From assembly GCF_030013205.1 (NCBI RefSeq), contig NZ_CP122648.1: 64,000 nt of DNA; one strand, 5' to 3'. Below are positions 25,279-41,706 of the stretch, piece by piece (positions within the stretch are counted from its first letter, which is position 1; each line of letters opens with the position of its first letter). The stretch is from Escherichia coli (GTDB taxonomy: Bacteria > Pseudomonadota > Gammaproteobacteria > Enterobacterales > Enterobacteriaceae). The notes beneath the pieces are model-generated. The model ran no database searches, was not told the origin of the DNA, and saw only the letters and a list, made by a program, of their open reading frames with translations. The position numbers were made by a program, and so were the translations under genes.

Positions 25279-25310
25279 GGTTGTTACCTCGTTACCTTTG
25301 GTCGAAAAAA

Positions 25311-25345
25311 AAGCCCGCACTGTCAGGTGCGGGCTTTTTTCTGTG
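25311..25345 (-). promoter_or_regulatory. thr attenuator terminator hairpin
   Basis: agcccgcacctgacagtgcgggct followed by a T-run on minus strand between thrL and thrA. Confidence 0.85.
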
Positions 25346-25358
25346 TTTCCTGTACGCG

Positions 25359-25427
<69 letters not shown>

Positions 25428-25637
25428 TGTTGTGTACTCTGTAATTTTTATCTGTCTGTGCGCTATGCCTATATTGGTTAAAGTATTTAGTGACCTAAGT
25501 CAATAAAATTTTAATTTACTCACGGCAGGTAACCAGTTCAGAAGCTGCTGTCAGAGACTCTTTTTTTAATCCACACAGAGACATATTGCCCGTTGCAGTC
25601 AGAATGAAAAGCTGAAAAATACTTACTAAGGCGTTTT

Positions 25638-26324
25638 TTATTTGGTGATATTTTTTTCAATATCATGCAGCAAACGGTGCAACATTGCCGTGTCTCGTTG
25701 CTCTAAAAGCCCCAGACGTTGTTGTAACCAGTCGACCAGTTTTGTGTCATCTGCCACTGCCAGAGTCGTCAGCAATGCCATGGCTCGTTCGCGTAAAGCT
25801 TGCAGTTGATGTTGGTCTGCCATTGTGTCACTTTTCGCCGGTTGTTGTATTAATGTTGCTAATTGATAGCAATAGACCATCACCGCCTGCCCCAGATTGA
25901 GCGAAGGATAATCCGCCACCATCGGCACACCAGTAAGAACGTCAGCCAACGCTAACTCTTCGTTAGTCAACCCGGAATCTTCGCGACCAAACACCAGCGC
26001 GGCATGGCTCATCCATGAAGATTTTTCCTCTAACAGCGGCACCAGTTCTACTGGCGTAGCGTAGTAATGATATTTCGCCCGACTGCGCGCAGTGGTGGCG
26101 ACAGTGAAATCGACATCGTGTAACGATTCAGCCAGTGTCGGGAAAACTTTAATATTATCAATAATATCACCAGATCCATGTGCGACCCAGCGGGTGGCTG
26201 GCTCCAGGTGTGCCTGACTATCGACAATCCGCAGCTCGCTAAACCCCATCGTTTTCATTGCCCGCGCCGCTGCCCCAATATTTTCTGCTCTGGCGGGTGC
26301 AACCAGAATAATCGTTATACGCAT
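25638..26324 (-). CDS. lasT: SpoU-type tRNA/rRNA methyltransferase LasT (YjtD)
   Basis: MRITIILVAPARAENIGAAARAMKTMGF...; internal ATG used. Confidence 0.85.
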   Translation of the reverse strand: MRITIILVAPARAENIGAAARAMKTMGFSELRIVDSQAHLEPATRWVAHGSGDIIDNIKVFPTLAESLHDVDFTVATTARSRAKYHYYATPVELVPLLEEKSSWMSHAALVFGREDSGLTNEELALADVLTGVPMVADYPSLNLGQAVMVYCYQLATLIQQPAKSDTMADQHQLQALRERAMALLTTLAVADDTKLVDWLQQRLGLLEQRDTAMLHRLLHDIEKNITK

Positions 26325-26723
26325 ATTGCCACTCTTCTTGATCAAATAACCGCGAACCGGGTGATCACTGTCAACTTATTACGCGGTGCGAATTTACAAA
26401 TTCTTAACGTAAGTCGCAGAAAAAGCCCTTTACTTAGCTTAAAAAAGGCTAAACTATTTCCTGACTGTACTAACGGTTGAATTGTTAAAAAATGCTACAT
26501 ATCCTTCTGTTTACTTAGGATAATTTTATAAAAAATAAATCTCGACAATTGGATTCACCACGTTTATTAGTTGTATGATGCAACTAGTTGGATTATTAAA
26601 ATAATGTGACGAAAGCTAGCATTTAGATACGATGATTTCATCAAACTGTTAACGTGCTACAATTGAACTTGATATATGTCAACGAAGCGTAGTTTTATTG
26701 GGTGTCCGGCCCCTCTTAGCCTG

Positions 26724-26864
26724 TTATGTTGCTGTTAAAATGGTTAGGATGACAGCCGTTTTTGACACTGTCGGGTCCTGAGGGAAAGTACCCACGACCA
26801 AGCTAATGATGTTGTTGACGTTGATGGAAAGTGCATCAAGAACGCAATTACGTACTTTAGTCAT
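26724..26864 (-). CDS. yjjY: small protein YjjY
   Basis: hand-translated 46-codon minus-strand ORF MTKVRNCVLDALSINVNNIISLVVGTFPQDPTVSKTAVILTILTAT, below the ORF-track size cut-off. Confidence 0.7.
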   Translation of the reverse strand: MTKVRNCVLDALSINVNNIISLVVGTFPQDPTVSKTAVILTILTAT

Positions 26865-26959
26865 GTTACGCCGATCATGTTAATTTGCAGCATGCATCAG
26901 GCAGGTCAGGGACTTTTGTACTTCCTGTTTCGATTTAGTTGGCAATTTAGGTAGCAAAC

Positions 26960-27676
26960 ATGCAGACCCCGCACATTCTTATCGTTGAAGACGAGTTGGT
27001 AACACGCAACACGTTGAAAAGTATTTTCGAAGCGGAAGGCTATGATGTTTTCGAAGCGACAGATGGCGCGGAAATGCATCAGATCCTCTCTGAATATGAC
27101 ATCAACCTGGTGATCATGGATATCAATCTGCCGGGTAAGAACGGTCTTCTGTTAGCGCGTGAACTGCGCGAGCAGGCGAATGTTGCGTTGATGTTCCTGA
27201 CTGGCCGTGACAACGAAGTCGATAAAATTCTCGGCCTCGAAATCGGTGCAGATGACTACATCACCAAACCGTTCAACCCGCGTGAACTGACTATTCGTGC
27301 ACGCAACCTGCTGTCCCGTACCATGAATCTGGGTACTGTCAGCGAAGAACGTCGTAGCGTTGAAAGCTACAAGTTCAATGGTTGGGAACTGGACATCAAC
27401 AGCCGTTCGTTGATCGGCCCTGATGGCGAGCAGTACAAGCTGCCGCGCAGCGAGTTCCGCGCCATGCTTCACTTCTGTGAAAACCCAGGCAAAATTCAGT
27501 CCCGTGCTGAACTGCTGAAGAAAATGACCGGCCGTGAGCTGAAACCGCACGACCGTACTGTAGACGTGACGATCCGCCGTATTCGTAAACATTTCGAATC
27601 TACGCCGGATACGCCGGAAATCATCGCCACCATTCACGGTGAAGGTTATCGCTTCTGCGGTGATCTGGAAGATTAA
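26960..27676 (+). CDS. arcA: aerobic respiration control response regulator ArcA
   Basis: 238 aa [41 protein letters not shown]... Confidence 0.97.
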
Positions 27677-27693
27677 TCGGCTTTACCACCGTC

Positions 27694-27728
27694 AAAAAAA
27701 CGGCGCTTTTTAGCGCCGTTTTTATTTT
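27694..27728. terminator. bidirectional terminator between arcA and creD
   Basis: A-run, hairpin cggcgct...agcgccg, T-run between convergent gene ends. Confidence 0.7.
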
Positions 27729-27734
27729 TCAACC

Positions 27735-29087
27735 TTATTTCCAGATACGTAATTCATCGTCCGTTGTAACTTCTTTACTGGCTTTCATTTTCGGCAGTGA
27801 AAACGCATACCAGTCGATATTACGGGTCACAAACATCATGCCGGCCAGCGCCACCACCAGCACACTGGTTCCCAACAACAGCGCGCTATCGGCAGAGTTG
27901 AGCAGTCCCCACATCACACCATCCAGTAACAACAGCGCGAGGGTAAACAACATGCTGTTGCACCAACCTTTCAATACCGCCTGCAAATAAATACCGTTCA
28001 TTATCGCCCCAATCAGACTGGCGATTATCCATGCCACGGTAAAACCGGTATGTTCAGAAAGCGCCAGCAAGAGCAAATAAAACATCACCAATGAAAGCCC
28101 CACCAGCAAATATTGCATTGGGTGTAAACGTTGCGCGGTGAGCGTTTCAAAAACAAAGAACGCTATAAAAGTCAGTGCAATCAGCAGAATGGCGTACTTA
28201 GTCGCCCGGTCAGTTAATTGGTATTGATCGGCTGGCGTCGTTACTGCGACGCTAAACGCCGGGAAGTTTTCCCAGCCGGTATCATTGCCTGAAGCAAAAC
28301 GCTCACCGAGATTATTAGCAAACCAGCTGCTTTGCCAGTGCGCCTGAAAACCTGACTCGCTAACTTCCCGTTTGGCTGGTAGAAAATCACCTAAAAAACT
28401 GGGATGCGGCCAGTTGCTGGTTAAGGTCATTTCGCTATTACGCCCGCCAGGCACCACAGAAAGATCGCCGGTACCGCTTAAATTCAGGGCCATATTCAGC
28501 TTCAGGTTCTGCTTCCGCCAGTCCCCTTCAGGTAAAGGGATATGCACGCCCTGCCCGCCTTGCTCTAACCCGGTGCCGGGTTCAATGGTCAGCGCCGTTC
28601 CGTTAACTTCAGCCGCTTTCACCACACCAATACCACGCGCATCCCCGACGCTAATCACAATAAATGGCTTGCCTAAGGTGATATTTGGCGCGTTGAGTTC
28701 GCTAAGACGCGAAACATCGAAATCGGCTTTTAGCGTTAAATCACTGTGCCAGACCTGACCGGTATAAATCCCTATCTTGCGTTCTTCCACGTTCTGATTG
28801 CCATCAACCATCAATGACTCAGGTAACCAAAAATGGATAAAACTTCGTTTCCGCTCCACGGTTTTATCCTCTTCCTGCACCGTATAAAGCTCGGTCACAG
28901 GAATAGCGATGAGCGGCCCAACGAGTTTTTGCGGCCCGCTGGTACTTTGGCGAATCGCATCTTCCACATCGCTACGGTAATCAGCACGTTCGACAATCAC
29001 CTGCCGAATCAGCATTATCGGAATCAACAACAGCAATACTGCACCAAACAGGGTGGTCATTTTCCAGAACAGGGGGGATTTCAACAT
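27735..29087 (-). CDS. creD: inner membrane protein CreD
   Basis: 450 aa, position after creC. Confidence 0.9.
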   Translation of the reverse strand: MLKSPLFWKMTTLFGAVLLLLIPIMLIRQVIVERADYRSDVEDAIRQSTSGPQKLVGPLIAIPVTELYTVQEEDKTVERKRSFIHFWLPESLMVDGNQNVEERKIGIYTGQVWHSDLTLKADFDVSRLSELNAPNITLGKPFIVISVGDARGIGVVKAAEVNGTALTIEPGTGLEQGGQGVHIPLPEGDWRKQNLKLNMALNLSGTGDLSVVPGGRNSEMTLTSNWPHPSFLGDFLPAKREVSESGFQAHWQSSWFANNLGERFASGNDTGWENFPAFSVAVTTPADQYQLTDRATKYAILLIALTFIAFFVFETLTAQRLHPMQYLLVGLSLVMFYLLLLALSEHTGFTVAWIIASLIGAIMNGIYLQAVLKGWCNSMLFTLALLLLDGVMWGLLNSADSALLLGTSVLVVALAGMMFVTRNIDWYAFSLPKMKASKEVTTDDELRIWK

Positions 29088-41289: not shown

Positions 41290-41706
41290 ATGGCTAAAAC
41301 AACTGTATCGATCGAAATTCCGGCTTCTGCCGACGCCGTATGGCAATTGATGGGCGGCTTTGATGCGCTGCCAGACTGGCTGCCGTTCATCCCGAAAAGC
41401 GTAGTGACAGAAGGCGGTCGCGTTCGTTCGCTGACAACCTCTGACGGCGGCACTGTGGTTGAACGTCTGGAAGCGTTTGATAACCGTCAACGCAGTTATA
41501 CCTATTCCATTATTCAGGCACCGTTCCCGGTGGTGGATTACCTCTCCACCATTACCGTTCATGAAACCGCCGACAGCCAGGTTTCCCGTGTGGAATGGTT
41601 CGGTGAATTCACCCCGGTGAATGTGACGAACGAAGAGGCCGAAGCGCTGTTTACCGGCATCTATCGGGATGGTCTCAAGGCGCTGAAGGACAACTTTGTT
41701 GCCTGA
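41290..41706 (+). CDS. SRPBCC-superfamily (polyketide cyclase-like) small protein
   Basis: 138 aa, pattern resembles SRPBCC ligand-binding proteins; family by recall. Confidence 0.5.
   Translation: MAKTTVSIEIPASADAVWQLMGGFDALPDWLPFIPKSVVTEGGRVRSLTTSDGGTVVERLEAFDNRQRSYTYSIIQAPFPVVDYLSTITVHETADSQVSRVEWFGEFTPVNVTNEEAEALFTGIYRDGLKALKDNFVA

Follow-up and report, generated by a model that had tools for sequence, protein, structure and literature searches.

ArcA is the master regulator of respiratory metabolism, and the long conserved 5' leaders of enterobacterial global regulators, e.g. rpoS, csgD and flhDC, are hubs of post-transcriptional control. The leader of arcA, predicted here at 220-290 nt, resembles them in that it precedes a global regulator and is conserved far above neutral sites. 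The DNA upstream of arcA has itself been described as a multi-promoter region under FNR and ArcA control: as Compan & Touati 1994 is cited, FNR regulates arcA from a region with five promoters and autoregulation is predicted, and the arcA FNR site has been confirmed experimentally by Reg-Seq (Ireland et al. 2020). The same DNA carries yjjY, a short open reading frame (ORF) transcribed divergently from arcA, and much of the published evidence on yjjY concerns arcA as well. A p19-capture study (PMC7373196) found arcA/yjjY among the abundant RNase III-dependent double-stranded RNA (dsRNA) clusters, as cluster S-383 with 'Full' overlap covering the entire yjjY CDS; a second, independent pulldown of dsRNA recovered it as well. 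During experimental evolution followed by TraDIS, Tn5 insertions in yjjY became enriched in every population, most of them oriented in the arcA sense, and a clean yjjY::FRT scar also increased fitness, an effect that its authors attribute to altered arcA regulation. Insertion sequences in arcA regulatory regions raise arcA transcript levels anaerobically, and in Dub-seq on sisomicin the fragments with both arcA and yjjY score above the sum of the single-gene scores, the authors speculating that the intergenic sequence contributes to the arcA-yjjY score.

The locus is thus a known one, already annotated and studied, and what our comparison adds is a refinement, namely that yjjY and the arcA leader are the same DNA and that selection there probably acts on nucleotides, not on the peptide. 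We regard it as probable that the region is an arcA promoter and leader with an incidental annotated ORF, and that yjjY stays open mostly since the underlying sequence is almost frozen.

The yjtD-arcA region and its short reading frames

Along the window (i.e. the whole 64-kb stretch of Escherichia coli DNA that was analysed, which runs in reverse of the K-12 chromosome numbering) the minus-strand genes thrA with thrL and yjtD, also called lasT, are followed by the intergenic gap, by arcA on the plus strand (26960-27676; ORF list, RefSeq and K-12 annotation) and by creD on the minus strand. Annotation of K-12, and of an E. coli record with the same sequence, places the divergent gap between yjtD and arcA at 26325-26959; its 635 bp, with 38.3% G+C, are also the length of the gap in K-12. 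The first-pass annotation was fair in calling this gap AT-rich but wrong in giving it 614 bp from 26346: that boundary derives from a TTG at 26345, with which the mechanical ORF track begins an extended yjtD, whereas the yjtD start annotated in RefSeq is the ATG at 26324 (MRITIILV...). Many complete genomes of E. coli contain a 901-bp query across the gap at 100% identity; of the 5,426 complete genomes, 5,409 hold 80% or more of it, the features beneath being yjtD, yjjY and arcA. In a four-sequence alignment the sole difference from K-12 within the gap is at position 26482, in the fast-evolving distal part, where the window has A and K-12 has G (TTGA[A/G]TTG).

On the minus strand of the gap lies an ORF of 46 codons plus stop with an ATG start (26724-26864; product MTKVRNCVLDALSINVNNIISLVVGTFPQDPTVSKTAVILTILTAT), annotated as 'protein YjjY' and wholly antisense to the arcA leader. 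Its identification as YjjY from the sequence alone is borne out by every comparison that we made. When the upstream region is aligned with that of K-12, anchored on the arcA start codon, the ORF lines up with K-12 yjjY (b4402) base for base, and in genomes with an exact match to the window RefSeq annotates it as yjjY. The product scores 96.5 bits (E = 7.8e-28) over profile positions 1-45 of 45 of the NCBIfam equivalog model NF052365 'YjjY', whose curated cut-off is 70 bits; it has no Pfam match. The synteny of the family, between arcA and yjtD and divergent from arcA, is found here as well. The supposition that the ORF track had missed it through its small size is plausible, given that the default ORF list begins at 60 aa. 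The window therefore shares with K-12 yjjY and the NF052365 family the same ORF (100%) in the same arcA-yjtD position, without any difference in sequence; where we depart from the family's description is in reading the conservation as a constraint at the nucleotide level, not at the protein level. Because an ATG-initiated ORF of at least 46 codons occurs in 52% of dinucleotide-preserving shuffles of the 635-bp gap (2,000 shuffles), the existence of the yjjY ORF is no more than chance would provide, and it is the conservation of the surrounding block, at the nucleotide level, that exceeds chance.

Further short ORFs share the gap. The 17-codon, TTG-initiated ytjE (b4824; 26495-26548, minus strand, from the K-12 annotation mapped through arcA), which the first-pass annotation did not mention, was discovered by Ribo-RET with Api-Pmn (apidaecin) profiling and has western-blot support (Stringer et al. 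preprint). It is identical to K-12 in the window and sits in the fast-evolving distal part; among the 73 relatives compared below, its ORF occurs only in the E. coli-like sequences. On the plus strand the arcA leader holds three upstream ORFs (uORFs): one at 26676-26738, one of 25 codons at 26806-26883 (MMLLTLMESASRTQLRTLVMLRRSC) that is antisense to yjjY, and one, also of 25 codons, at 26877-26954 whose end lies 5 nt short of the arcA ATG. In Salmonella, according to a preprint, a translated sORF precedes arcA on the arcA strand and overlaps yjjY; it may correspond to the ORF at 26806-26883.

Two features outside the gap are recorded here for completeness of the locus. The thr operon leader (Rfam RF00506, 121 bits; 25304-25423, minus strand), with the thrL peptide at 25359-25424, is ordinary and annotated. 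Between the convergent ends of arcA and creD, a GC-rich hairpin flanked by runs of A and T (AAAAAACGGCGCTTTTTAGCGCCGTTTTTATTTTT; 27680-27735) gives only sub-threshold Rfam hits (sraA, STnc240) and is probably a bidirectional terminator.

Conservation of the block and of the yjjY frame

The comparative sample was drawn by searching contigs from metagenomes for a DNA pattern that covers the ribosome site and the opening codons of arcA, so that the choice was blind to yjjY; an earlier genome scan with the ArcA protein had been swamped by paralogues of the OmpR family, with about eight true arcA loci, and was replaced by this one. The pattern scan yielded 73 distinct arcA-upstream sequences of 750 nt, 66 of them of the Enterobacteriaceae type and 7 more distant (Yersinia and Photorhabdus included). 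Fitch steps were counted on a neighbour-joining tree of the flanking sequences, and as the contigs carry no taxon labels the tree behind these counts is approximate.

In the 66 Enterobacteriaceae-type sequences, the arcA-proximal 320 bp of the gap (26640-26959, plus strand) form an ultraconserved, near-invariant block that continues past both ends of yjjY. Steps per site amount to 0.39 in yjjY, 0.50 in the adjoining stretch at 26640-26699 and 0.90 at 26865-26959; arcA has 0.41 at first and 5.9 at third codon positions, and the distal spacer 6.6. The block changes about 15 times more slowly than the third codon positions of the gene that it precedes. Expressed as divergence from the window, the distal part (26346-26640) differs by 30-55%, the start of yjtD by 20-30% and arcA third codon positions in other genera by 25-38%, while the yjjY segment differs by 0.7-4%, except in three lineages that reach 10%. 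The most conserved core of the leader, 72 nt at 26793-26864 that coincide with yjjY codons 1-24, diverges by only 6% between E. coli and Yersinia, a comparison in which arcA third codon positions differ by 43%. The earlier claim that the ORF is a gene and the remainder of the gap the arcA leader therefore holds for the leader, which is present, but not for the partition, since the conserved block runs straight through yjjY on the opposite strand.

Within the core there is an inverted repeat, TTGATG-N7-CATCAA, whose left arm carries three uncompensated changes in one lineage (L148), the yjjY product of which resembles that of Siccibacter. Another lineage (L101; metagenome contig ERZ834859...NODE-3761) combines an E. 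coli-like distal spacer, only 1.4% different, with arcA third positions that are 33% different and a proximal leader with Klebsiella-type variants, and represents a recombinant or an assembly chimera.

The 46-codon frame is preserved in about 54 of the 66 sequences and in Yersinia, where the ORF also has 46 codons and is annotated as 'YjjY family protein', so the expectation that it is conserved in related genomes was not refuted. Conservation of the ORF is nevertheless no evidence of coding in this case, because every ORF in so frozen a sequence is conserved, because a codon signature is missing and because the frameshifted lineages keep their nucleotides. Steps at the first, second and third codon positions are distributed 18:19:18 in yjjY, compared with 97:11:1411 in arcA and 63:11:287 in the 5' end of yjtD, for the same sequences and tree (p = 0.98 versus uniform, 2e-85 versus arcA and 3e-19 versus yjtD); the codon periodicity and third-position excess expected of purifying selection, which the neighbouring genes display in these sequences, are thus not found in yjjY. 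Changes among yjjY alleles comprise 24 non-synonymous and 11 synonymous ones (site ratio 2.94), i.e. a rough dN/dS of about 0.7 that is indistinguishable from neutral, and the start codon is GTG instead of ATG in 15 of the 66. The same picture holds over the longer distance to Yersinia: the 26 differences in yjjY fall 8:9:9 by codon position and include 15 non-synonymous versus 2 synonymous codon changes, and were 26 substitutions placed at random, start, frame and stop would all survive 21% of the time.

The frame is moreover broken in 12 of the 66 distinct sequences, by at least three types of indel, with the C-terminal half read in another frame or the ORF truncated; the nucleotides downstream of these frameshifts remain essentially identical to those of E. 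coli. Several lineages are frameshifted by insertions of 1 or 2 nt in an indel-tolerant micro-patch at 26778-26790 (CTGAGGGAAAGTA), some indels lying elsewhere; one frameshifted form of 49 aa from this patch occurs in the genomes of Cronobacter sakazakii, whose type of +1 insertion is at 26783. Within E. coli, variants of the ORF (set P0001, P0014, P0016) comprise one of 61 aa that has lost its stop codon, one of 48 aa in which the frame is shifted and then restored, and one of 76 aa that is joined to unrelated sequence past codon 29. As judged from these comparisons, yjjY is without the evolutionary signature of protein coding and evolves like regulatory DNA or RNA.

Promoter and operator motifs in the block

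The most arcA-distal part of the block contains an extended -10-like element, TGcTACAAT (26655-26663, plus strand), read by eye, which is the candidate for an upstream arcA promoter with a predicted start near 26670; it lies in TTAACGTGCTACAAT, which is unchanged across the four sequences of an alignment (A1) that includes Photorhabdus. It is followed by an FNR-type box of the TTGAT-N4-ATCAA type (TTGATATATGTCAA; 26669-26682, plus strand) that agrees with 9 of the 10 consensus positions and is nearly invariant in 52 leaders. The pattern TTGAT-N4-RTCAA has two matches in the 64 kb; the other, which is FNR/CRP-like, is TTGATAACCGTCAA at 41477-41490 on the plus strand.

Downstream of a hypervariable spacer, a second extended -10-like element, TGtTATGTT, lies over two TGTTA direct repeats 11 bp apart (TGTTATGTTGCTGTTA; 26722-26737, plus strand) and overlaps the yjjY stop codon. 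This sequence is conserved in Photorhabdus except for one base, and TGTTA-N6-TGTTA has no other match in the 64 kb, where 0.07 are expected. The double repeat matches what we take to be the consensus of the operator bound by ArcA-P (ArcA box), so that it is a candidate ArcA-P operator and would fit autoregulation. The 22-bp spacer that separates the FNR box from this downstream -10 element (26700-26721) accumulates 3.4 steps per site and yet shows no indels in the 52 leaders (alignment A2), which suggests that its length is under constraint and its sequence is not. Measured from its centre, the FNR box precedes the start predicted for TGtTATGTT (about 26737) by 61.5 bp, a spacing predicted to reflect class I activator geometry, and that geometry would explain why the spacer is fixed in length and free in sequence. 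A consensus promoter and terminator scan gave no plus-strand hit under its criteria and one minus-strand hit versus 2.2 expected.

On these grounds we infer the following arrangement. The 320 bp next to arcA would consist of a promoter cluster and a long 5' leader, with transcription starting near 26670 from the upstream extended -10 element and near 26737 from the second one (26722-26730), for which the FNR box would act as a class I site and whose overlap with the double TGTTA repeat would place it under autoregulation by ArcA. Either transcript would begin with a leader (about 220-290 nt) antisense to yjjY over its full length. The target of selection would then be the nucleotide sequence, in its role as promoter and operator DNA and probably also as leader RNA or as sense/antisense RNA; no selection on the YjjY peptide is detected, and 'yjjY' phenotypes would be effects on arcA expression.

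The arrangement concerns the same locus as the FNR- and ArcA-controlled region of earlier work, with the FNR-type box at 26669-26682. The multi-promoter arcA leader proposed in the first-pass annotation agrees with that description and with the Reg-Seq FNR site. The distal 26325-26640 is poorly conserved and, besides ytjE, presumably holds the yjtD promoter. What the promoter and operator motifs explain is roughly 26650-26740, not the near-invariance of 26740-26959, possible sources of which are further internal promoters, binding of proteins or sRNAs, or a sense/antisense duplex.

Alternative explanations and their consequences

Several RNA-level signals were sought in the leader. An Rfam scan of 25300-27800 at E <= 1 returned nothing within 26325-26959, its only hits, the thr leader and some terminator-like ones below threshold, lying outside the gap. 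Folding energies of the leader were not unusual on either strand (z-scores of -0.07 and -0.17), and RNAalifold on the 52 leaders gave a covariation term of -0.05 with a double change in 1 of 77 pairs, in sequences too alike to give such a test power. ArcZ affects an arcA translational fusion in Erwinia, but pairing with this sRNA was rejected as the cause of leader conservation in our sequences, as 80% of shuffles did as well with full-length ArcZ and 57% with the search restricted to the seed; in having ArcZ pairing no better than that of shuffles, the E. coli arcA leader differs from hubs of the rpoS, csgD and flhDC type.

That yjjY encodes a genuine functional small protein of 46 aa, possibly in the membrane, whose coding constraint adds to that of the leader and so produces the extreme conservation, is in our view unlikely. 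An ORF intact in most of the sequences and in Yersinia, a curated NCBIfam model and a promoter proposed from genomic SELEX (PMC3946193; TTGCCA-19-TACAAA, located by eye at 26917-26947 on the minus strand) speak for such a protein, as does a maximal Kyte-Doolittle 19-residue mean of 1.58, which is borderline for a membrane helix at a conventional threshold of about 1.6, with hydrophobic runs that are broken by N, G, P and T. These points are met, however, by substitutions enriched neither at third positions nor at synonymous sites, by frameshifts that replace the C-terminal half (the Cronobacter sakazakii form among them) with no relaxation of nucleotide conservation, and by a conservation that is just as strong beyond either end of the ORF. 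Its Shine-Dalgarno pairing, at -1.7 kcal/mol, is weak, ORFs as long as this occur in shuffles, and would reach Yersinia unselected, at the rates reported above, and the phenotypes have been ascribed to arcA by their own authors; a limited search of published supplementary data found no experimental evidence for the protein. The strong overlapping constraint could mask weak selection at the protein level, and translation of a short-lived or sequence-insensitive YjjY peptide is possible. The plus-strand uORFs (26676-26738, 26806-26883 and 26877-26954) offer another translational account, whereby they would control arcA translation and be the object of the conservation, and this we consider highly improbable. 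All three are retained in most sequences, as well as yjjY is, one of them ends just before the arcA ATG, and the translated Salmonella sORF antisense to yjjY (preprint) points the same way; yet codon periodicity was found in none of the three, with steps by codon position of 26:28:32, 16:9:14 and 20:20:15, respectively, Shine-Dalgarno pairing is nil, the ORF at 26877-26954 is truncated or extended in several lineages, and any ORF in a frozen sequence counts as conserved.

It is also rather improbable, in our estimate, that the minus-strand product is a cis-antisense RNA that pairs with the arcA leader and sets mRNA stability or translation via RNase III, with the ORF incidental to it. The abundant RNase III-dependent dsRNA cluster over the entire yjjY CDS, seen in two independent captures, is what this explanation would predict, and both strands are equally constrained, promoter-like sites exist on the minus strand and insertions with orientation-dependent fitness effects have been reported. 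Formation of dsRNA is, however, widespread and often without consequence, the reported insertions may act through promoter disruption or through antisense transcription, the single minus-strand promoter-like hit of the scan is within chance, and the signals of structure and covariation were not found. The arcA promoter and leader with an incidental ORF accordingly stays our preferred account of the region. A bolder version of it, which we put forward only tentatively, is that yjjY is no protein gene but the footprint of an arcA leader of about 300 nt, frozen across Enterobacteriaceae and partly in Yersinia, with an undescribed mechanism; this may be, e.g., an RNase III-processed sense/antisense pair or a dense platform for protein or sRNA binding that sets ArcA levels.

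These observations not only bear on a single small ORF but also counsel caution against the rule, in small-protein annotation, that a conserved ORF means a gene: yjjY would be kept across genera, and have an NCBIfam model of its own, because the regulatory sequence that it overlaps is nearly invariant. The locus itself is ordinary, and the 15-fold slower evolution of the leader points to a control of arcA that is yet to be worked out. Evolution experiments in the laboratory and in the gut have repeatedly returned mutations and insertions around 'yjjY', and if yjjY does ride on the arcA leader, such hits, together with the Keio yjjY deletion, would have to be read as regulatory alleles of arcA.
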